Assembly (NCBI GenBank): GCA_963674705.1
Contig: OY771506.1
Coordinates: 4,672,001-4,736,000, forward strand
Direction of reading: 5' to 3'
Source: Phycisphaeraceae bacterium
GTDB taxonomy: Bacteria > Planctomycetota > Phycisphaerae > Phycisphaerales > Phycisphaeraceae
Length of the DNA stretch: 64,000 nt
The notes under the pieces: generated by a model
Told to the model about the DNA's origin: nothing
Seen by the model: the letters and a program-made list of their open reading frames with translations, nothing else
Databases searched by the model: none
Made by a program: the position numbers and the translations under genes
Part shown: one piece after another, positions 49,934 to 62,191 of the stretch
How positions within the stretch are numbered: position 1 is the stretch's first letter
How the letters are laid out: each line of letters begins with the position of its first letter

Positions 49934-49961
49934 TTGACAATTGAATGACTTGATTTATACT
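49934..49961 (+). promoter_or_regulatory. Sigma70-type promoter
   Basis: TTGACA-16 bp-TATACT, conserved in copy 2. Confidence 0.6.
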
Positions 49962-50029: not shown

Positions 50030-50140
50030 CAGCATATAATTCCCAGCCACTGAACATTCAGGTTATTAACGGTTACTTTGTAGCTGCTGGGCAAGAGATA
50101 CTAGAGAAAGCCCTCGCAACATTGATTGTGAGGGCTTTTT
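50030..50140 (+). ncRNA. Candidate attenuator leader RNA (GlpP-type antiterminator/terminator), copy 1
   Basis: GGGC-AAGAGATACTAGAGAAA-GCCC stem-loop whose 3' arm is the 5' arm of terminator GCCCTCGCAA..TTGTGAGGGC-TTTTT (50107-50140). Confidence 0.65.
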
Positions 50141-50441
50141 GTATTGTGACTCGAACTAAAACCATTTGGAGGGCGCATATCGAGACAGGTTGAAAATAAC
50201 ACAGCGAGTCGTTTCTTTTATGACTTCTGACACCGCGTGTTAGAAGGTTGTGTGTACTTACACACATCTGTGGCTGTGAAATGAGAAGAATTGAATTATG
50301 TGGGCGAGTAGTCGGTGCGATGAGAAGTGCCAGTCCTTCGTGAAGCTTACCGATTCCCGCAATGCCCGGATTCTGCCTGCGACTTGGAACAAACAGTGTC
50401 TGCGAAGTTGGACTACAATTCACTTATATAGGAGGAAGAAA

Positions 50442-51161
50442 ATGTTGAAGACAACACCCTGCATACTGACGCTTGCACTGGCTGCCGGCGCAGTCCACGC
50501 GGACCTGATCAATGAGTTCAGCCCCAATCCTGATGGCGCTGATCCGCTCACCCAGACAATCGAACTGCTCGGTACGCCCGGCGCTTCGTTCGATCTGTGG
50601 TTCCTCGAGATCGAATCGGACCTCCAGGCGTCAATGGGGACAATTGACCGCGCCGAACCCATGGTAGGCACGTATGATGCCAATGGTATTGCTACCATAG
50701 AGATTGCCGATCTGGAAAACCCCAGCTCGACCTATGTGCTTACCTCCGGCTTTGATATCAACAACCTGGGCATCGATAACGACGCCGACGATGACGGTAT
50801 TTGGGATGACATCGCCCTGCTCGGCACCGTGATGGATGCGGTCGGCCATTTTGATGCACCCGAAGACTTCGTCGACTATGCAGGCCAGCTCGGTGGTGTG
50901 GCCATGGCTTTCAGTGCCAGCCTCGGCGACGGCGAAGCGGAGCTACTCTTCCGTGACCGCGTCACCCTTGACTGGTACGCCTCCGATGTGGGTATCCCCG
51001 GCCTGGCTGACGCCAACGGCAACGATGTCGACCCAAACCTCTTTGACCTCGATCCATTCACGGCAACCTTCGGCAGCGCTAACCCGACCGTTATCCCCGA
51101 ACCGGCCATGATAAGTCTGTTTGGCTTCGCCGGCCTTGCAACACTGCTGCGCCGCCGTTGA
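50442..51161 (+). CDS. PEP-CTERM protein with lamin-tail-like INEF domain
   Basis: ATG 50442 after GGAGG; signal peptide; LINEF..IELLGTPG; IPEPAMISLFGFAGLATLLRRR. Confidence 0.85.
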   Translation: MLKTTPCILTLALAAGAVHADLINEFSPNPDGADPLTQTIELLGTPGASFDLWFLEIESDLQASMGTIDRAEPMVGTYDANGIATIEIADLENPSSTYVLTSGFDINNLGIDNDADDDGIWDDIALLGTVMDAVGHFDAPEDFVDYAGQLGGVAMAFSASLGDGEAELLFRDRVTLDWYASDVGIPGLADANGNDVDPNLFDLDPFTATFGSANPTVIPEPAMISLFGFAGLATLLRRR

Positions 51162-51199
51162 TATAGACCCGGTCAAAAATGAAACATGCAGATAATATG

Positions 51200-51230
51200 C
51201 GAAGACCCGTCACCAAAGCGGGTCTTCGTT
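51200..51230 (+). terminator. Probable terminator hairpin
   Basis: CGAAGACCCG-N9-CGGGTCTTCG followed by TTACTTT. Confidence 0.65.
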
Positions 51231-51562
51231 ACTTTGCATTGATAAGCATAATGGTGTGAACCGGAGTTAAACGAAAGATTGAGGATGACGAATCTATATT
51301 ATATCTTCACACTGTAATCTGACGTCACTTTTTGTGTTTGTTTTCTGTTAACAACAGATTGTGTGTGATCCCCACAGGTCAATCATTATCTGGCGATAGT
51401 GACCACGTTACCGCCACATCCTCAACCCAGTCGGCTTTACTATTTATGCATGCCATATAAATCCCATCCCGTATTCATGGTGATCCTGGAGTAATTGGGA
51501 AGCAATAATTTTGGAATACGTATTAATATCATTGCGTTAAACCCGCACGTAAAGCTAAGCGA

Positions 51563-51870
51563 ATCAAGATCCAGCACAATTCACGCGGAATTAACAGGCA
51601 TATCCTTGACAAATGCATGACTTGATTTATACTGGCCGAAGGTGGAAGTGCGTATACGGCTAGCCTAGGCAGCCGGACCCAAATCAATCGGAGGCGTTAC
51701 ACAGCATATAATTCCCAGCCACTGAACATTCAGGTTTCTAACGGTTACTTTGTAGCTGCTGGGCAAGAGATACTAGAGAAAGCCCTCGCAACATTGGTTG
51801 TGAGGGTTTTTTGCATTGGGACTCGGGGCTCAAACTTTATGGAGGTTGTATATCGAAACAGATTGAGAAT
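51563..51870 (+). repeat. Duplicated promoter/leader region, copy 2
   Basis: TTGACA at 51606, TATACT at 51628; core nearly identical to copy 1. Confidence 0.9.
51702..51812 (+). ncRNA. Candidate attenuator leader RNA, copy 2
   Basis: Same GGGC-AAGAGATACTAGAGAAA-GCCC and terminator GCCCTCGCAAC..GTTGTGAGGGT-TTTTT. Confidence 0.65.
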
Positions 51871-51974: not shown

Positions 51975-52832
51975 ATGAAGGCTTATCAGAAACTGATCGG
52001 AATGATGACGGTTGCAAGTATCGCGACCCTGACCGCACAGTCCGCAAACGCGGTGGCGATTAATGAGTTTCGTGTAGATCACGCAGGCGCCGATACCGAT
52101 GAATTCTTTGAACTGGCGGGCACCCCCGGCGAATCACTCGATGGTTTGACATACATCGTGATCGGCGACGTCCCGGGCGGCGGCGACTTCACCACCGGCG
52201 CGATTGAAGTCGCCATCTCCTTAGACGGATTATCAATCCCCGCCGATGGTTTCTTCCTCGCGGTGGAATCTATTTTCGCTGGACCGGCCGGCGTCAACGC
52301 GGACCTGGTGATCGACCTGAACTTCGAGAATTCCGACACGGTCAGCCACCTGCTTGTCAGCGGATTCACCGGCCAGGATGGGGACTTAATCGACTCCGAT
52401 CAGGATGGTGTGCTTGATGCGGTTCTACCCTGGACCAGCATTATCGATGGCTTGTCTTTAGAGGAACTGGTGAACACTACAGAGATCAACTACGGGCCGC
52501 AACTTGGTATCCCCACATTATCAGCACAACCATCAACCGGTGAAAATTACATGCACGCTTATCGTGAAGTCGACATCACAGGCGCCTGGATAGGCGGTTC
52601 TGATTATCTCTTCCTTGATACTGAGACGCCGGGCTATTCCAATGTCGCTGCCGCGATCCCGGGCGATATCAATGAAGACGGCTTTGTCGGCCTTGACGAT
52701 CTTGACATTGTTTTGAACCATTGGAACGAAGGCACACCTCCCTCCGGCGGTACTCCGTCAATCCCCGAGCCGGCGTCGTTGGCTTTGCTTGGCGTAAGTC
52801 TCACAGCCTGCCTGCGCCGCCGTGGTGCGTAA
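51975..52832 (+). CDS. PEP-CTERM protein with lamin-tail-like INEF domain and one dockerin-like repeat
   Basis: AINEFRVD..DEFFELAGTPG; GDINEDGFVGLDDLD; IPEPASLALLGVSLTACLRRR. Confidence 0.88.
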   Translation: MKAYQKLIGMMTVASIATLTAQSANAVAINEFRVDHAGADTDEFFELAGTPGESLDGLTYIVIGDVPGGGDFTTGAIEVAISLDGLSIPADGFFLAVESIFAGPAGVNADLVIDLNFENSDTVSHLLVSGFTGQDGDLIDSDQDGVLDAVLPWTSIIDGLSLEELVNTTEINYGPQLGIPTLSAQPSTGENYMHAYREVDITGAWIGGSDYLFLDTETPGYSNVAAAIPGDINEDGFVGLDDLDIVLNHWNEGTPPSGGTPSIPEPASLALLGVSLTACLRRRGA

Positions 52833-52960
52833 ACGGGAGACATCCCTCCCGGTGCTAGGTGGCCGGGCCTCCTCGGGACGGGGGCCCGCGCCGCCTGAGC
52901 GCAAGTGTTGGCGTACGTGAGTAACTATGGGAAGGTTAAAAACTTTAAGGACGAATAATT

Positions 52961-53857
52961 ATGACGACAAGATTACCGGCTAAGCGCATCGGTGCATTCA
53001 CCCTGATCGAATTGCTGGTCGTGATATCCATCATTGCTTTACTCGTTGGCATCCTGCTGCCTGCATTAGGGGCGGCGCGTAGATCTGCTCAGAAACTTAG
53101 CTGCCTTTCGAACATGCGGCAGATCGGATTGGCCGCAGCCGCACGCGCAACTGATGATAAGTATGGGATTCAGATGCCCACGTTTGACGGAACTGATGAC
53201 GGCTTGGCGCATCTCTATCCGAATTACCTGCAAGCAGTCGAACTGGGTGTATGCCCCAGCACTGATAACATTTGCCGCTCCGACAACATGAGGCCGGCTG
53301 GCCTTCAGATCCCCGGCTTGCCCCCGGGGTCTCAGTATGACCGCGAGGTGCCTTCGGATTGGACACGCGCCGCATTAAGCGCATCTTACAACAAGGGTGG
53401 ACAAAGCTATGAAGTCTTTGCGTGGATGAGCGGCCCCGTCATCTTCCCCGATGGTAAAAAAGTCGATGGAAGAATGCTTGGAACAATCAATGACCAACGC
53501 GCAAGCGAACCTCGCCTCAATGGTCCGCACTGGAACAGTGTCACAAGCAGCGTGCTAAAGTCAACTCACAACGTTGACAATACCAGCAAGGTCATGCTGG
53601 TGCTTGATGCGGATATTGGCCATGGTGACGATGACCGAAACAACATCCCGGATGTCACGAACAATCACGGGGATGAAGGCATCAATATGAACTTTCTCGA
53701 TGGACACGCCAGTTGGGTACCTGCCGGGGAAGAGTTACTCAGGACTTACCTGGATGGGTATTCAACCGCGGCCTTGGACAATTCCACCTTCATGGAATTC
53801 ATCCCCAACCTGAGAATATCCTCGGAAAATGGCTTCACGAGATACAGCTACGATTAA
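52961..53857 (+). CDS. DUF1559-type prepilin N-terminal cleavage/methylation protein
   Basis: [51 protein letters not shown] (H-X9-DG). Confidence 0.9.
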
Positions 53858-54043: not shown

Positions 54044-54625
54044 TTAACGATTCAACTGCCACAAGCGTGAATTTGATGTGCTGACTGCCTGACAACCCGC
54101 GCGCAGGATCTGGCCCGCAGTGTCACCGCTGCGGATCAATCCCCCCGCGATGTAAGGAATCGAAATCTGCTTCAGATCATCCGCAATGAGTGTGGTCGCG
54201 ATGCCGGGCAGCATCTCAATCGCATCGGGTTTGGAGTGTTCGATGATAGACAGGCCACGCCTGACCGCCCGGCCATCTTGAAGGAATAAGCGTAGAACCG
54301 TGTAGAGATTGAGTTTTCGGCTGAGTCGAATCAAATGATGTTTTGTAGTAATAATCCCGCATACCCGGTCAAAGCCCGCAACGAATCGGAGCCCGGCTTC
54401 GTCGTTATTCAGCCCGCCAATGAGGTCTATATGGAGCATAACCGGGATATTACGCGTCAGTTTCTTGTTCAACATATTCAGTGCGTGGGGGATATCGGAG
54501 ACTTCGCCGCCACTAAGGAACAAGACATCTGCGTATTCCAGCAACTCCGGGTCGGGTATGGACCAATCGGTGACGTAAGGGATGATTGGTTTACCCAGGA
54601 GTGATCGGATGCCCTTGGCATTCAT
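54044..54625 (-). CDS. glpP: Glycerol-3-phosphate-responsive antiterminator GlpP
   Basis: LHIDLIGGL, GIITTK, RLFLQD, PDAIEMLPG, PYIAGGLI, GCQAVSTSNSRLW; 193 aa from ATG 54625; divergent from glpD. Confidence 0.88.
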   Translation of the reverse strand: MNAKGIRSLLGKPIIPYVTDWSIPDPELLEYADVLFLSGGEVSDIPHALNMLNKKLTRNIPVMLHIDLIGGLNNDEAGLRFVAGFDRVCGIITTKHHLIRLSRKLNLYTVLRLFLQDGRAVRRGLSIIEHSKPDAIEMLPGIATTLIADDLKQISIPYIAGGLIRSGDTAGQILRAGCQAVSTSNSRLWQLNR

Positions 54626-54656: not shown

Positions 54657-57113
54657 ATGCAAGTAAGTATGATAGAAGGTGAACAGGTAAATTCCAAACA
54701 GTCTACGGACGCCCGGGTCGATCCGGACCGTTTGCGGCAGGTCCGCCACCTTGCGCTGGACATGGATGGCACGCTCTATCTTGGCGGCACCTTGTTCGGA
54801 TTCACGCTTGATTTTTTGAGTTCGCTTCGTGAGATGGGGATCGGCTATACGTTCTTCACCAACAACTCCTCAAAATCCACACAGGAATATATCGAACGTC
54901 TCGGTAAGATGGGGATCGAGACGACGCCCGATATGTTCTACAGCTCGACACACGCGACGATCGACTATATCCGCAAGTCATACCCGATGGTCAATAAGAT
55001 TTTTGCCCTGGGAACCACAAGCTTCCAGGAAGAACTTATTCAGAATGGTTTTGAGATCAGCGCAGCACAGCCGGACATGGTTGTTGTCGGATACGACACG
55101 GAACTGACATACGCCAAGTTGTGCCGTGCTGCCTATTGGATCAAACAAGGCAAACCATACATTGCCACACACCCGGACCTGATCTGCCCAACCGATCAGG
55201 CTATTGTATTGCCGGATTGCGGGGCGATCTGCAAAATGCTGACCGCCGCAACCGACCGCAATCCTGATGCGATCTTGGGCAAACCCAACACACTCATGCT
55301 TAAGGGTTTGTTGGACCGTCACGACCTGGAGCCGTTTCAAGTCGCGATGCTGGGTGATCGTCTCTACACCGATATCGCGATGGCGAACAACGCCGGCGCG
55401 CTCAGTGTGCTCGTACTGACGGGCGAAACGAAATCGGAAGATATCACCGGCGCTACTCAGCAGCCTGATATCACGGTCGACAATGCTTGGAAGTTCCTTG
55501 AGTTATTGAGGGGTAGCCTTGCGGGTGTTAATGTTGCTCAGCCATCTGCCGTGAGTATCAAACCCGTTACCAAACCAAGCGGTGATGAACCGACTACCTC
55601 AGATCAGGATGATGTAGACGTCTTGATTATCGGTGGAGGGATTGTCGGCGCCGGCATCGCGCGCGATGCGGCGATGCGTGGGTTGCGCGTGGTGCTGGTT
55701 GAACAAAACGACTTTGCCTCCGGCACAAGCAGCCGATCGAGCCGGTTGCTGCACGGCGGATTGCGCTACCTTGCACAAGGCCGCATAGGCCTGGTGCGTG
55801 AAGCGAGCCTCGAAAAGCAGGTCGTGCAGAAGATCGCTCCACATTTGGCGGAATCGCTACCGTTTATCTTCCCGACCTACAAAGGGACACAGTGGAAACG
55901 CTGGAAGCTGGGCATCGGTGTGAAGATCTATGACCTTCTCTGCAACGGACGAAACTTCGGCAAGTCGCAAACACTCGGTGTAAACCGTGTACGGGCGGAT
56001 CTGCAAGGCATCAAAGCCGATGATTTGACCGGTGCGGTAAGGTATTTTGATGGGCTGACGAATGATGCACGCCTGGTGATTGATACATTGCGTTCCGCGG
56101 CATCCCATGGGGCCCAGCTTCATAATTACACACGATTTGAAAACGCATCCAACAAGGGCGGCGTCTGGCAGTGTGAGTTACATGACCGCCGAGCCAATCG
56201 TCATTACAGCTTACATGCCAAGACCGTCGTCAACGCGTCGGGGCCGTGGGCCGATCGTCTGGCGCATAGCCGAACATCGCTGCGCCTGACCAAGGGGGTG
56301 CACCTGGTTATCGACCGCGATCGATTACCAATCCCCGATGCGGTTGTCATGACGGAAGGTGATCGTATCCTCTTCGCGATCCCCTGGGGCAAACGTGTGA
56401 TCCTCGGCACCACGGATACGGATTATGATGGCCCGCTGGATTCGCCAACGTGCGATGTAGAAGACGTGCAGTATGTACTTGCTATCACAAACAAGACTTT
56501 CCCGGAGGCATCGCTCCAAAGTGAACATGTCATCGCTGATTGGGCCGGCATACGCCCGCTGATCGCCAATGGTGACGAGGCCGGAACCCCGTCAGATACC
56601 TCACGCTCCCACCAGATACGGATGACCGAGCCCGGATGGTTCGATGTCGCGGGTGGCAAACTGACCACGTATCGCTTGATGGCAGAGCAAACCGTGGACA
56701 TGGTTGTGGATCAATTGGGCTGCGAAGCGCTGGATTGTCAGACCGCGAAGCATCGGTTATTAAATCCCGGGGAGGAGCGTGGCAGCGGTATCCTTCCCCC
56801 TGCGGTTTCGCGTGACCAGGTTGTACACTATTGTCAGAATGAGTGGGCAATACACTTGGATGATGTTATGCTCAGACGCTCCAGCTGGACGTATTATCAC
56901 AGCAACGCGATGGATATCGCCCAGCGGGTCGCGGCCTGGATGGCGGATATCTATCAATGGGATCGATCAACCACTGCTGCAGAGTTACAAAGATACTTTG
57001 CCAGCTCAGGCGACAATAACCGTGATTCGATTCAAGATGTTACCGTCACCTCGACACCGAATGTATTTCTCAGGTCGGTTCTCAAAGGCCAACCGCAACA
57101 GATCGAGATGTAG
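54657..57113 (+). CDS. glpD: Fusion of HAD-IIA (NagD-like) phosphatase and FAD-dependent glycerol-3-phosphate dehydrogenase
   Basis: DMDGTL, TNNS, GKP, GDRLYTD, then DVLIIGGGIVGAGIARDAAMRG, ASGTSSRSSRLLHGGLRYL, AGGKLTTYRLMAE in one ORF. Confidence 0.88.
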   Translation: MQVSMIEGEQVNSKQSTDARVDPDRLRQVRHLALDMDGTLYLGGTLFGFTLDFLSSLREMGIGYTFFTNNSSKSTQEYIERLGKMGIETTPDMFYSSTHATIDYIRKSYPMVNKIFALGTTSFQEELIQNGFEISAAQPDMVVVGYDTELTYAKLCRAAYWIKQGKPYIATHPDLICPTDQAIVLPDCGAICKMLTAATDRNPDAILGKPNTLMLKGLLDRHDLEPFQVAMLGDRLYTDIAMANNAGALSVLVLTGETKSEDITGATQQPDITVDNAWKFLELLRGSLAGVNVAQPSAVSIKPVTKPSGDEPTTSDQDDVDVLIIGGGIVGAGIARDAAMRGLRVVLVEQNDFASGTSSRSSRLLHGGLRYLAQGRIGLVREASLEKQVVQKIAPHLAESLPFIFPTYKGTQWKRWKLGIGVKIYDLLCNGRNFGKSQTLGVNRVRADLQGIKADDLTGAVRYFDGLTNDARLVIDTLRSAASHGAQLHNYTRFENASNKGGVWQCELHDRRANRHYSLHAKTVVNASGPWADRLAHSRTSLRLTKGVHLVIDRDRLPIPDAVVMTEGDRILFAIPWGKRVILGTTDTDYDGPLDSPTCDVEDVQYVLAITNKTFPEASLQSEHVIADWAGIRPLIANGDEAGTPSDTSRSHQIRMTEPGWFDVAGGKLTTYRLMAEQTVDMVVDQLGCEALDCQTAKHRLLNPGEERGSGILPPAVSRDQVVHYCQNEWAIHLDDVMLRRSSWTYYHSNAMDIAQRVAAWMADIYQWDRSTTAAELQRYFASSGDNNRDSIQDVTVTSTPNVFLRSVLKGQPQQIEM

Positions 57114-57149
57114 TTGGAATCAGTTTTCATCTATCAGGACAATATATTT

Positions 57150-58754
57150 ATGAAGAATATAGCCCGTACGCCGTATACCTTACCAAGTGTCTTGGCCTTT
57201 CTTTGCTTGTGCTTGGTGAGTTTGATGTATGTTCAAGTTGTCTATGCATCAGAAGACAATCCCTACGTCGATGCGGTGCTGGCGGATAAGCCGGTTGGCT
57301 ACTGGCGTTTTGAAGAGGCATCCAATGCGTCTGTAGCTGTCAATCTTGCAGATAAGTCTGATGCGACCCAAGGCTCGTACAACATGGTGACGCTTGGAAT
57401 TCCGAGCGCAACAAAGGCGCTCGGTAACGCGGCAGCGTTTCATGGAGCCGATGCGGACAGCTACATTGATCTCGGCTCGCCGGAATCTCTTATGATCCGT
57501 GGTGATCTGACGATCGAATGGTGGCAGTATGTAACCAACAGCAATGTCGAGGATCAGGCTATCATCTGCTGGGCTAAGCCGGGTGATAGTGCATCGGACA
57601 ATGTGCTTTACGAAGTTGTTTTGCGCTATGATGAGAAGCAAAAGGAGCAAAAGTACCCGCGCCCCCAGATCGTGCTCGGTCACGAGTACGGCCAAGGCAC
57701 AAACGTCCGGATGCCTTCACAGGCAACGGTCCACTTCAATCGTTGGTATCACATCGCCGTCGTGCGAGATGCCGATGCACGCACCGTCCAGTATTACATC
57801 AACGGCTTCCCCTCGGGCGAGCCGATCAGCTATGCGACGAATAACAACAATCCCACGGGTGGCGAATCCGCCGGCGTCACGATTGGCCGCCTGGGACAGT
57901 TTGATAGTCGTTACTTCCAAGGGTATCTGGATGAGGTCGCTGTTTACAACCATACATTAACCGCGGATCGCATCCTGAAACATTACCGCACAGCACTTAA
58001 AGGCGCCGACATGAAAGAACGTTCAATAGTCGTTGCACACCGAGGCAACAACCGATTCGCCCCTGAAAACACGATCGTTTCGTACAAACAAGCAATCGAA
58101 GCCAAAGCACCGATGGTCGAGATGGACCTCCAGTACAGCAAGGACGGCGTTATTATTCTCATGCATGATAAAACGCTGGATCGGACTACCGATGGCACAG
58201 GTGAAGTCAAAGCTAAAACACTTGACGAATTGAAAACGCTCGATGCGGGTACCTGGAAAGGCACACAATACACAGGCGAGCCGGTCCCAACATTTGCCGA
58301 GGTCGCAAAGGTCTGTAAGGGGCAGACCATCATCATGCTTGATTTAAAGACTCTCGTGAAAGGCGATGATATCGCAAAAGCCTTGTCTGAAGCAGACTTC
58401 CCCGAGGACCAGGTTGTTGTCGCACCTTGGCAGATCGAGCATGCCACATCCATCAAGCCCTACCTGCCGGACGCAAACATGATCTTGTTGCACAGCCAGC
58501 TGCCAGAAGAATACACGGGCGATGATGTTTTCTTCGACAACATGAAACAACTCGGATTCAGTGGATTCTCCCTGAATTGGACGCACCTGACTGAATCTTT
58601 TGTACGAGCGGCACGACAGAATGGTATGAAAGTCTATACCTGGACGATTAATGATCCTGTGGATATCAGTGGCGCCGTGTTGATGAAGGTCGACGGGATC
58701 ATCACGGATGACCCCAAAGCCACAGCGGTCTATATTAACGACGTGATCCGCTGA
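57150..58754 (+). CDS. glpQ: Secreted LamG-domain plus glycerophosphodiester phosphodiesterase
   Basis: PVGYWRFEE..WYHIAVV..GYLDEVAVY (LamG); VAHRG..APENT, EMDL..SKDGVIILMHD.TLDRTT, YTWTIND, VDGIITD (GDPD). Confidence 0.88.
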   Translation: MKNIARTPYTLPSVLAFLCLCLVSLMYVQVVYASEDNPYVDAVLADKPVGYWRFEEASNASVAVNLADKSDATQGSYNMVTLGIPSATKALGNAAAFHGADADSYIDLGSPESLMIRGDLTIEWWQYVTNSNVEDQAIICWAKPGDSASDNVLYEVVLRYDEKQKEQKYPRPQIVLGHEYGQGTNVRMPSQATVHFNRWYHIAVVRDADARTVQYYINGFPSGEPISYATNNNNPTGGESAGVTIGRLGQFDSRYFQGYLDEVAVYNHTLTADRILKHYRTALKGADMKERSIVVAHRGNNRFAPENTIVSYKQAIEAKAPMVEMDLQYSKDGVIILMHDKTLDRTTDGTGEVKAKTLDELKTLDAGTWKGTQYTGEPVPTFAEVAKVCKGQTIIMLDLKTLVKGDDIAKALSEADFPEDQVVVAPWQIEHATSIKPYLPDANMILLHSQLPEEYTGDDVFFDNMKQLGFSGFSLNWTHLTESFVRAARQNGMKVYTWTINDPVDISGAVLMKVDGIITDDPKATAVYINDVIR

Positions 58755-58833: not shown

Positions 58834-60183
58834 ATGGCCAAAGGCACCTTCAAATTCCTGTCCCCCGCCCCGCATGCCCCCAGACTTCCTGACGACCAGG
58901 TCAAACGGCTTTACCCCCGTTATCGCTGGCAAATCATGGAGTCGACCTTCCTCGGGTATGCCATGTTCTACCTGGTCCGCAACAACCTCTCTCCGGTCGC
59001 CAAGGAGATTGAGGGGGCGCTGCACTACGACCATTCGATGATCGGCAGCATCCTGGCGGTCACCGCGATCTCCTACGGGGTCGGCAAGTTCATCATGGGT
59101 TCGATTTCCGACCGCAGCGATCCTCGCAAGTTCATGGCGCTTGGCCTGTTATTGACGGCCATATGCAACTTCATGTTCGGCGGCGTTGCGAACTATTACC
59201 TGCACATGGCGCTGTGGTCGATGAACGGATTCTTCCAGGGGATGGGCTGGCCCCCGTGTGGCCGATCCATGGGACACTGGTTCAGCGCCCGCGAACGAGG
59301 TGTTTTCTTCAGCACCTGGAATACCTCGCACAACCTAGGCGGCGGTATCGCCGGCATCCTCGCTGCGTATGCCGCGGGGCACTTCGGTTGGCAGGCCGCG
59401 TTCTACTTCCCCGGGGCTATCACGTTGGTTGGCGCACTCTATTTGTTCTGGCGTCTCCGTGACACACCGCAATCCGTGGGCCTCCCGCCAATCGAAGAAT
59501 ATAAAAATGATTACACCGAAGATGAACTCGAGCACGGCCTACACGAAGAAGAACTCGGTACCAAAGAGCTGCTTCTCGATGTCGTCCTGACCAACAAGTA
59601 CGTCTGGATGCTGGCGATCGCCAACTTCTTTGCATACATCGTCCGTTACAGCATGCTCGACTGGGGGCCGATGTACCTGCGCGAGATCAAGGATGCAACA
59701 CTGCACGGCGGAGGTTTTGCCGTCCTTGTGATTGAGTTCGGCGGTATCCCGTCAACGATTTTCTTCGGTTGGGTCTCCGACAAGCTCAGCGGCCGACGCG
59801 GGATGGTCGGGACGTTGTGCATGCTGCCGATCGCGGTCGCTTTCGCCGTGATTGCTCTGACACCGCCCGGTTATCTCTGGCTTGACATGTGTATGCTCGC
59901 GGTGATCGGTTGCTTTATCTATCCGGTCATCAATCTGATCACAATCGCAGCACTCGACCTGACTTCCAAGAAAGCAATCGGATGTGCCGCGGGTTTCATC
60001 GGTCTCTTCGGCTATATCGGCCGGACCGTACAAGCCAAGGGCTTCGGTTGGATGGTGGATTACTTCTCTGAGATTTATTCCTTGCATACCGCCTGGCTGA
60101 TCGTCATGTACACGATCCTTGCCAGCGCCATTGTCACGATTGTGTTGCTTGCCACCATGTGGCGGCTTAAACCAAAGGCATAG
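58834..60183 (+). CDS. glpT: GlpT/OPA-family MFS glycerol-3-phosphate transporter
   Basis: FLGYAMFYLVRNN, SYGVGKF, QGMGWPPCGR, WNTSHNLGG, RDTPQSVGLP, AAGFIGLFGY. Confidence 0.92.
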   Translation: MAKGTFKFLSPAPHAPRLPDDQVKRLYPRYRWQIMESTFLGYAMFYLVRNNLSPVAKEIEGALHYDHSMIGSILAVTAISYGVGKFIMGSISDRSDPRKFMALGLLLTAICNFMFGGVANYYLHMALWSMNGFFQGMGWPPCGRSMGHWFSARERGVFFSTWNTSHNLGGGIAGILAAYAAGHFGWQAAFYFPGAITLVGALYLFWRLRDTPQSVGLPPIEEYKNDYTEDELEHGLHEEELGTKELLLDVVLTNKYVWMLAIANFFAYIVRYSMLDWGPMYLREIKDATLHGGGFAVLVIEFGGIPSTIFFGWVSDKLSGRRGMVGTLCMLPIAVAFAVIALTPPGYLWLDMCMLAVIGCFIYPVINLITIAALDLTSKKAIGCAAGFIGLFGYIGRTVQAKGFGWMVDYFSEIYSLHTAWLIVMYTILASAIVTIVLLATMWRLKPKA

Positions 60184-60205
60184 GTTTTATGTGAGTGGGG
60201 AAAGG

Positions 60206-62191
60206 ATGTTGACAATGTCTTGCAGACAACTGGGCCTGTTATTCTTAGTTTTATTGTTCAGCTGCTGCAGGGCTGAGTACGCACACGGTCAAATCCGAAT
60301 AGTCACCTATAATACCGCCAACGGAACCGGCATCGAAGGGAATACCGCCATCCCACGCACCGGGATGGAGGTCGTGCTCCAGGCTATCGGCGACGAGTCT
60401 ACCGGTGGGATCGCAAAGCCAATCGATATCCTTGCACTGCAGGAGCAGGACGATGTCGCAACCACGACACAGATCTTTGTGAATATGCTTAACGCGATCT
60501 ATGGCCCGGGCACCTATGCACGAGGCTATGTACTCAATGACGCAACCACACAAATCCACACAGGCATCGTCTATAACACGACCACGGTAACGCTGCTCGA
60601 AGAGCATGCCTTCGGCACCGCAAGCGGTTCCACCTCTGCCAGGCAACCGATGCGTTACAAATTCCGCCCCGTCGGTTACACCAGCTCAGCGGACTTTTAC
60701 GTTTATAACAGCCACTACAAAGCAAGCACGGAAGCAGCCAGCCTGGTCCGCCGAGCATACGAAGCCGAGATCATCCGCGCCGATGCCGACGCGCTGGGCC
60801 AAAGCAAACACATCATCTACGTGGGCGATTACAACATCCAATCCAGCAGTGAGGATAGCTATCAGATATTGCTGAGCCCCGGCAACGGGCAAGCGTTCGA
60901 CCCGATCGACTCGCCCGGCAATTGGCACAATAACTTCGGATTCGCGCCGATCCACACGCAGAGCCCCCATGATGGCAGCGACAACTTAGCCGAAGGCGGC
61001 ATGGACGATCGCCTGGACTTCCAATTGGTAACCAGTGAATTCCTGGACGATGAAGGACTCAGCTACATCAATGGCTCGTATCACGCGTTCGGCAATAATG
61101 GCACGACTTATGACCTCCCAGTCAATTCAGTACTCAATACCTACCCGTTAACACAGGCAAAGTTGGATGATCTGGCGCATGTCAGCGATCACTTACCCGT
61201 CGTGGCTGATTATCAACTCCCCGCCCGGATGCAGGTCACGGTAGACCCTGTCCCGCAGCGGGTGATGATAAACTCGATTGTAAGCGTGTCGGCAACCGTA
61301 ACAAACACAGCCCCGGTCGTCGCTTCCAACGGTGCCGACGAACTGGATTACACGATTACTACACTGGGGCTGCTTAGCGGTGGCGGGTCAGGCAGTGTTG
61401 ATGCACTTGTTGCTGGAGATGTCTACGAATTAACGCTGAACACGTCTGTTGTGGGAACTAGGAACGGGCAAGTCAACGCATCAAGCAACAGCCAGGCTGT
61501 GGCGAATGGCTCCTTCTTCAAAGGTGTCAGCAGCACCATCCTCGATCACGCCAGTGCATCATTTGCCTCCGGCTTGGATCAGAATACGCTGACGATCGAC
61601 TTCGGCACACTCACAACCGGCGGGGCCATTACCAGCGATTTCGATCTATTTAACCTCGAACTGTCCTCGCTCTTCACTTCTGCCCTCGATCTCGACATGA
61701 TCGTAGGCCAGGGGGATACCGGCATACTCCTCAGCAACCTTGCGACGTTCAACAACCTGGCAGCCGGTGATTCACACGGATTTATAGCCAGCTTCAACAC
61801 CGGCACGGCCGGTTCATACTCAGCAACCTATACCCTGCACCTGTCCGATGAAGATGTCCCTGGCGAAGCCGGCCAGACACTCACACTACAACTGCTGGGT
61901 CAAGTCATCGAAGACCTGGTCGGCGACCTGGATAACGATGGGTTCGTCGGTCTGTCGGACCTGGACATCATCCTGACGAACTGGAACAAAACCGTTCCAC
62001 CAGGTGATCCGTCAGCAGATCCGACCGGTGACGGGTTTGTCGGTCTGGATGACCTGGATATCGTGCTCAATAACTGGAACAGCGGCACCCCGCCTCATGC
62101 ATCAGACAATATCCCTGAACCAGCAAGCATTATCTTGCTCGGGCCAGGCCTCACGTTGTATCTGCGTCGCTGCCAAATAGTCGAATCTTGA
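60206..62191 (+). CDS. Secreted endonuclease/exonuclease/phosphatase-domain protein with dockerin-like repeats and PEP-CTERM
   Basis: RIVTYN, DILALQE, HYKA, VGDYN, RLDFQ, SDHLPV; GDLDNDGFVG-type repeats; IPEPASIILL. Confidence 0.85.
   Translation: MLTMSCRQLGLLFLVLLFSCCRAEYAHGQIRIVTYNTANGTGIEGNTAIPRTGMEVVLQAIGDESTGGIAKPIDILALQEQDDVATTTQIFVNMLNAIYGPGTYARGYVLNDATTQIHTGIVYNTTTVTLLEEHAFGTASGSTSARQPMRYKFRPVGYTSSADFYVYNSHYKASTEAASLVRRAYEAEIIRADADALGQSKHIIYVGDYNIQSSSEDSYQILLSPGNGQAFDPIDSPGNWHNNFGFAPIHTQSPHDGSDNLAEGGMDDRLDFQLVTSEFLDDEGLSYINGSYHAFGNNGTTYDLPVNSVLNTYPLTQAKLDDLAHVSDHLPVVADYQLPARMQVTVDPVPQRVMINSIVSVSATVTNTAPVVASNGADELDYTITTLGLLSGGGSGSVDALVAGDVYELTLNTSVVGTRNGQVNASSNSQAVANGSFFKGVSSTILDHASASFASGLDQNTLTIDFGTLTTGGAITSDFDLFNLELSSLFTSALDLDMIVGQGDTGILLSNLATFNNLAAGDSHGFIASFNTGTAGSYSATYTLHLSDEDVPGEAGQTLTLQLLGQVIEDLVGDLDNDGFVGLSDLDIILTNWNKTVPPGDPSADPTGDGFVGLDDLDIVLNNWNSGTPPHASDNIPEPASIILLGPGLTLYLRRCQIVES

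Follow-up and report, generated by a model that had tools for sequence, protein, structure and literature searches.

Putative GlpP-type attenuators duplicated ahead of surface-protein genes in a planctomycete glycerophosphate locus

In Bacillus subtilis, GlpP bound to glycerol-3-phosphate (G3P) disrupts the terminators of the glp leaders, and induction is lost in a glpP deletion strain, according to one report (PMC9604022), whose supplementary Table S4 gives the glpD 5' UTR as a GGTC/GACC stem around two GAGA units in which GACC opens the terminator. Excerpts of a second report (PMC10573289) describe terminators located by Term-seq in the B. subtilis glpF and glpT leaders. Two further systems bear on the locus described here: the N_methyl plus SBP_bac_10 (DUF1559) proteins, presented in part of PMC8567305 as an expanded Planctomycetes family adjoining genes for exported proteins, and the Staphylococcus aureus noncontiguous operon menE-menC-MW1733-ytkD-MW1731, covered in portions of PMC7154746 and PMC11034616. 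Our search of the literature on GlpP, the surface proteins and noncontiguous operons, which took in few subscription papers, returned neither a consensus for the GlpP site nor a GlpP regulon in planctomycetes.

A duplicated leader with competing hairpins

We analysed a 64,000-nt stretch of planctomycete DNA (the window), whose positions serve as coordinates throughout. A sequence-only reading had singled out two noncoding leaders, at 50030-50140 and 51702-51812, and its count of 4 differences in 111 nt was exact (sites 50065, 50066, 50125 and 50135). Pairwise comparison of the copies revealed that the repeat is larger than first described, extending over 283 nt at 84% identity with promoters included. 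A pattern scan placed a TTGACA-N16-TATACT promoter, matching the consensus at 11/12 positions, before each leader, giving predicted sigma70-like promoters at 49934..49961 (leader 1) and 51606..51633 (leader 2) on the + strand; of the 9 copies known from the genus, 8 have a comparable promoter 151-171 nt upstream. BLAST, nhmmer and a site-finding script returned just these two copies in the 5.5-Mb genome, with none in reversed controls. Both are also present in a second species (genome G004), so the duplication is not an assembly artefact. Rfam 15 gave 0 matches in the window at the gathering threshold (best E 0.47, with resemblance confined to the terminator), and no family, unrelated or otherwise, matched the leaders by gathering or E-value thresholds. 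A likeness to purine riboswitches, noted by eye, was dropped because it had no Rfam match and lay in a region that is not conserved between species.

As the first reading had proposed, an intrinsic terminator is predicted before each gene, with a hairpin of about -20 kcal/mol and a U tract in both leaders (50107..50140 and 51779..51812, + strand), whose folding z-scores are -4.3 and -3.8. The proposed alternative pairing was likewise borne out: GGGC at 50089-92 can pair with GCCC at 50110-13, which is the 5' arm of the terminator, enclosing a 17-nt purine loop. The predicted GlpP-type antiterminator hairpins (50089..50113, with a 4-bp stem in copy 1, and 51761..51785 in copy 2, both + strand) represent an element with a stem of 4-5 bp and a loop holding two GAGA units; the 3' stem strand doubles as the terminator's 5' arm, and the small GGGC/GCCC hairpin alone is worth -4.4 kcal/mol. 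The two differences within the terminator keep or extend pairing, one (50125) lengthening the stem and the other (50135) turning a G-C pair into G-U. The claimed pairing of an upstream CCCAGC fared less well: this strand (50042..50047, +) can pair with GCTGGG and could sequester the 5' side of the antiterminator stem, but the pairing is predicted in 7 of the 9 genus copies and absent in 2, and conservation between species is confined to the final ~75 nt of the 111 (G003, G006 and G007 match over that part), making this helix optional. A small genus-specific hairpin directly 5' of the antiterminator (50071..50085, +) is weakly supported, with 96% of cells paired in 9 copies and no two-sided changes.

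The site recurs beside glpP

A GlpP protein search yielded 26 loci: this genus contributed 4, Bacillaceae 3, and the remaining 19 were of planctomycete type. Model R1, built solely from the 9 genus copies, matched every one of the 19 non-genus planctomycete-type glpP loci (E <= 0.17), at which the site lies 104-273 nt from the start of the glpP match, on the opposite strand and heading a glp operon; the downstream operons contain HAD/GlpD homologues, and genome G016 has the same arrangement. A stricter script passed 17 of 20 (the 19 loci plus G016), and R1 and the script separated glpP loci from controls in the same way. The site finder matched 0/32 pattern-match loci from genomes with no glpP match and 0/39 loci holding other homologues of the surface genes. 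In Bacillales, the same architecture with other stem sequences was present at 10/33 glpP loci (8/30 plus 2/3 Bacillaceae; reversed control 0), and no site was found at the other 23, 30 of the 33 having just 1.5 kb of flanking sequence. The 43 distinct cores comprise 15 stem sequences and loops of 14-18 nt, with two GAGA units in 42, a diversity of stems that is partly built in, since the script demands stem pairing and a GAGA-type loop. Matched stem changes (GAGCC/GGCTC, GAGCT/AGCTC and GGGCA/TGCCC) were also obtained with a degenerate pattern that is independent of pairing.

Among 100 relatives, strong DNA matches to the leaders occurred in 4, all of the same genus and all with glpP ~2.2 kb away; glpP itself scored above cut-off in 7/101 genomes and in 0/400 other genomes sampled across the phylum. 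A loose version of the pattern matched 64/400 genomes of the phylum sample, and 30 of its ~80 sites were examined; judged from the table, the reversed pattern matched at a similar level, so the loose pattern is not specific without the terminator. Kin genomes in these comparisons are not independent of one another. G005, a fragmented assembly whose glpP is at the end of a contig, yielded no site.

Comparison with known GlpP leaders revealed that the element matches the architecture of the B. subtilis glpD leader, as given in PMC9604022. This likeness, together with recurrence beside glpP, suggests that the leaders are likely GlpP targets, and the proposal to that effect is strongly supported once the negative controls are added. 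We consider it very probable, from comparative sequence and by analogy with B. subtilis, that the two leaders are GlpP-dependent transcription attenuators that would switch on PEP-CTERM and prepilin-like genes in response to G3P.

One related locus (L066:2209-5094) carries a second site ahead of a glycerol-1-phosphate (G1P) dehydrogenase-like gene and an MFS transporter gene. G1P dehydrogenases recur in related glp loci, a hint at use of both glycerophosphate stereoisomers; one query found no homologue in the window's genome.

Surface proteins behind the two leaders

The proteins downstream of the two leaders are indeed strongly diverged, at 26% identity. Their description as PEP-CTERM proteins held for the second (21.3 bits, cut-off 20.7) but not formally for the first, which at 16.5 bits falls below the cut-off. 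PEP1 (50442..51161, +) is a secreted protein with a PEP-CTERM-like tail, likely monocistronic, and is followed by a hairpin with a T-rich tail at ~51200-51236. PEP2 (51975..52832, +), assigned with Pfam, combines the PEP-CTERM signal with an acidic, lamin-tail-like domain that is predicted by structure modelling to form a beta sandwich (pLDDT 93.5) and contains many invariant acidic residues. The best fold match was the DUF4876 protein BT_1938 (Z 9.8, rmsd 3.8, 172 aligned); the lamin B1 Ig (lamin tail) domain gave Z 7.6 and rmsd 3.0 over 101 aligned, and Foldseek returned no match at E <= 0.001. The fold gives no function, and a role in glycerophosphate capture is suggested by the predicted regulator. 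After PEP2, at ~52850-52900, a GC-rich hairpin without a U tail is present in 5/5 genus genomes folded, and may stabilise the upstream part of the mRNA.

The third gene (52961..53857, +) encodes a protein with a prepilin N-methylation motif (PF07963, 22.9 bits, cut-off 21.2). It had been called a DUF1559 surface protein. At E <= 0.05 the product has no PF07596 match, whereas a homologue of it, at L247, exceeds the cut-off for that family. We therefore describe it as DUF1559-like rather than as a member of the Pfam family.

The glp cluster and two possible routes to glpD

The glpP gene (54044..54625, -; PF04309, E 4e-43) belongs to the glycerol-3-phosphate-responsive antiterminator family, of which 3kts and 1vkf are relatives with solved structures. 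Its end lies 2.2 kb from leader 2, the distance first noted. A predicted glpP promoter (54669..54697, -) overlaps the HAD reading frame at the 5' end of the latter, and its position is constant, at +72 to +74 relative to the glpP start, in 5/5 genus genomes. On the + strand follow a HAD-IIA phosphatase fused to a GlpD-type glycerol-3-phosphate dehydrogenase (54657..57113), a LamG domain plus glycerophosphodiesterase of GlpQ-like type (57114..58754), a GlpT-like MFS transporter (58834..60183; best NCBIfam match glpT, E 2e-124, below the equivalog cut-off) and, as the last cluster gene, a secreted EEP-family phosphoesterase-like protein with a PEP-type tail and a weak PF03372 match (60119..62191), which occupies the same place in G003, G004 and G007. 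The HAD-IIA and GlpD parts form one 818-aa frame in the window and G004 and two genes in G003, G005 and G007. A paralogue of the EEP-like protein, 64% identical, lies at G000 C1:3705127-3706071, where no site was found.

The short glpP-glpD gap had been described as having no terminator; it spans 31 nt and holds no site either. From this arrangement the first reading inferred that the switch controls surface proteins rather than glpD. Probable control of surface genes recurs in independent genomes, as described below, but the bypass of glpD is not established: in 19/19 other glpP loci and in G016, the site stands in front of the operon for glp catabolism. On the operon strand, from leader 2 to HAD, we found no U-tailed terminator in any of 5 genus genomes and no strict promoter shared across the 5. 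This absence is weak evidence, because both scans are insensitive, detecting + strand terminators in just 36/250 convergent gene pairs and promoters at 266/816 divergent gene starts. It nonetheless fits a noncontiguous operon of the S. aureus type, as do the interspersed glpP on the opposite strand with its own promoter and a gene order kept in 5/5 genomes. The sequence comparison gives slightly less than an even chance that the leader-2 transcript continues via the prepilin gene across antisense glpP into HAD-glpD-glpQ-glpT, in which case glpD would stay under GlpP control.

The principal alternative retains the same attenuators and disputes the read-through step alone: given that GlpP is the regulator, HAD-glpD-glpQ-glpT would have a promoter of its own within glpP or in the gap, and GlpP would control only the surface genes in this genus. 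This arrangement too falls just short of an even probability, and other arrangements make up the remainder. It would account for the missing site in the 31-nt glpP-HAD gap, and candidate promoters can be named. With relaxed criteria, glpP itself contains a promoter-like match at -67 in 4/5 genus genomes (10/12 in G003), compared with any such match at 3/19 non-genus glpP 5' ends, and TTGACA-N15-TAAGTT occurs in the gap after the prepilin gene in G000 and G004. In addition, an antisense RNA left untranslated over ~580 nt would be prone to termination by Rho, which counts for a separate promoter. However, the -67 match follows from the encoded residues, with synonymous positions that do not converge on the consensus, and the operon strand shares no strict promoter, whereas the promoter of glpP is conserved in all five genomes. 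The lack of a U-tailed terminator between leader 2 and HAD in the 5 genomes scanned, and the operon's place downstream of the site in each of the 20 other lineages compared, also argue for read-through.

Extra copies precede surface genes elsewhere

A pattern search of 22 glpP-bearing genomes detected 15 sites outside glp loci. Eleven of these, from 7 genomes, are full leaders with a terminator, scoring 17-45 bits with R1, and 10 of the 11 pass the script; the other four (L249, L223, L225 and L231) failed. The first gene behind the 11 leaders is prepilin-type in 6 cases and PEP-CTERM in 2; one leader is followed by a small membrane protein and then by prepilin and PEP-CTERM genes, another by a secreted protein with dockerin-like repeats (by reading of the sequence) and then a prepilin gene, and the remaining one by a secreted protein without a family match. 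Thus in 10/11 at least one of the two leading genes is of the prepilin/DUF1559-like or PEP-CTERM class. With a background for these classes of ~10% in the window's genome (405 regex matches among 3874 rough gene calls), the binomial chance of 8/11 first genes is ~1e-6, a figure that is overstated, since related genomes do not count as independent. Behind the site in G488, G498 and G504 lie homologues of the window's prepilin protein (31-35% over the C-terminal domain); PEP2 homologues take this place in L121, and L152 has a related protein there. Genomes without glpP also contain homologues of both surface genes, indicating that these families are not dedicated to glycerophosphate.

Recurrence of the extra leaders before prepilin and PEP-CTERM genes, together with the negative controls, makes it likely, on comparative grounds, that surface-gene control is a real feature of the GlpP regulon. 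An improbable alternative is that the surface-gene sites have no function and were carried along when promoter and leader were duplicated, or that they end the transcript of an independent small RNA, as might be suspected from copies that adjoin the glp cluster, a duplicated block that includes the promoter and 165-300 nt between terminator and start codon. Against this, the core is intact while the flanks diverge in 9 copies from 5 species, and in 7 other genomes the same classes of gene follow 11 distant copies, of which some show compensatory changes in the stem.

Within the genus, G003 and G007 (L031:259-2040 and L032:4570-5899) carry the two leaders divergently, and the second precedes a PEP-CTERM-type gene other than PEP1, indicating that the site persisted through an exchange of the regulated surface gene. 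At three sites (L245:1057-1593, L126:323-838 and L134:392-964) the gene that comes first encodes a small membrane-anchored protein with Cys-x-x-Cys-like motifs; the L245 copy has no NCBIfam match, and a prepilin gene follows wherever the contig shows one. A metagenome pattern scan gave at least 120 matches, dominated by one repeat family from a single assembly. Among 16 site-like loci chosen by eye from the matches listed, 6 have glpP on the contig, 4 a first gene of prepilin type (L169 duplicates L244), 2 a small membrane protein and 2 a lamin-tail-like secreted protein, and 2 run off the contig. Tandem prepilin genes at L115 (1595 and 2783) each have their own site-like leader. L114:134-225 holds a site with a long terminator, with neighbouring genes that look non-planctomycete by inspection and the downstream gene off the contig. 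The record L076 is labelled Thermoleophilia and may be mis-binned; its leader is nearly identical to that of planctomycete locus L073.

Discussion

We interpret the duplicated leaders as probable GlpP targets. The alternative offered by the sequence-only reading was a novel riboswitch, which would sense G3P or a related small molecule directly and without a protein. Rfam returned no match and the genus has extra upstream helices, both of which a riboswitch would explain, but the conserved core is ~25 nt with a freely varying stem and that weak -4.4 kcal/mol hairpin, the upstream part is not conserved between species, the element travels with glpP, and the matching B. subtilis leader needs GlpP (PMC9604022). 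We regard a riboswitch as very improbable. Least probable of all is another RNA-binding protein as the antiterminator: the role of GlpP is deduced from association, and other regulator-like genes lie near some loci (for example, L086), but no other regulator recurs at the loci and the association with glpP spans two phyla.

With GlpP as regulator, transcription would by default end at the leader terminator, as in B. subtilis. By the same analogy, G3P-bound GlpP would bind the loop and hold the weak hairpin, allowing polymerase to read through; the terminator needs the hairpin's 3' strand. The ligand is assumed to be G3P, and the G1P dehydrogenases in related operons mean that it could be G1P. 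Comparison of loci suggests a planctomycete regulon with two arms, a catabolic operon (HAD, glpD, glpQ, glpT and sometimes G1P dehydrogenase) and surface modules, which would be induced jointly. The surface modules, in which a prepilin-like partner accompanies proteins tagged with PEP-CTERM or dockerin, would probably, if speculatively, help to capture glycerophosphate-containing material, and antisense feedback on glpP is a speculative addition. A broader synthesis is unlikely as a whole: that GlpP-induced prepilin plus PEP-CTERM/dockerin modules capture glycerophosphate polymers (phospholipid head groups and teichoic acids), replacing the outer-membrane capture systems of other bacteria, and that in this genus the induced RNA additionally crosses glpP in antisense to reach the catabolic genes, as a noncontiguous operon damping its own antiterminator.

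The GlpP switch itself was already known; the proposed planctomycete surface-gene regulon is the addition. The comparison also defines the GlpP RNA site, for which Rfam holds no model, in a compact form that can be searched for and applies across two phyla. If the GlpP-target reading is true, it ties unexplained cell-surface and pilin-like proteins to glycerophosphate use, and offers a small-molecule handle on two large planctomycete protein classes, as specific prepilin-like and PEP-CTERM genes should respond to G3P. Predicted induction by G3P also points to what these proteins might bind. Should leader 2 read across glpP, the locus would form a noncontiguous operon regulated by the very gene that interrupts it.

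Set beside B. subtilis antitermination at the glpD, glpFK and glpTQ leaders, as described in excerpts of PMC9604022 and PMC10573289, the window shares a PF04309 protein, a promoter followed by a short stem around two GAGA units and an overlapping intrinsic terminator, and linkage of glpD, glpQ and glpT. It differs in belonging to another phylum, in targets that include PEP-CTERM and prepilin-like surface genes, and in a longer leader, with ~125 nt ahead of the site. Unlike in the B. subtilis system as covered by those excerpts, the glpK present in the window's genome has no site; in this genus no site lies directly before glpD, and glpP runs antisense between the regulated genes. The prepilin-like protein resembles the DUF1559 proteins of PMC8567305 in its prepilin motif and in adjoining genes for exported proteins, but lacks PF07596 and is preceded by a predicted metabolite-responsive site, whereas the excerpts of that paper name neither a regulator nor a substrate. 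Like the S. aureus noncontiguous operons, as portrayed in the consulted portions of PMC7154746 and PMC11034616, the locus consists of co-oriented, functionally linked genes broken by one oppositely transcribed gene with its own promoter. In contrast to S. aureus, co-transcription in the window is a prediction, and the gene set between the others would encode the activator of that same operon, which would create negative feedback.
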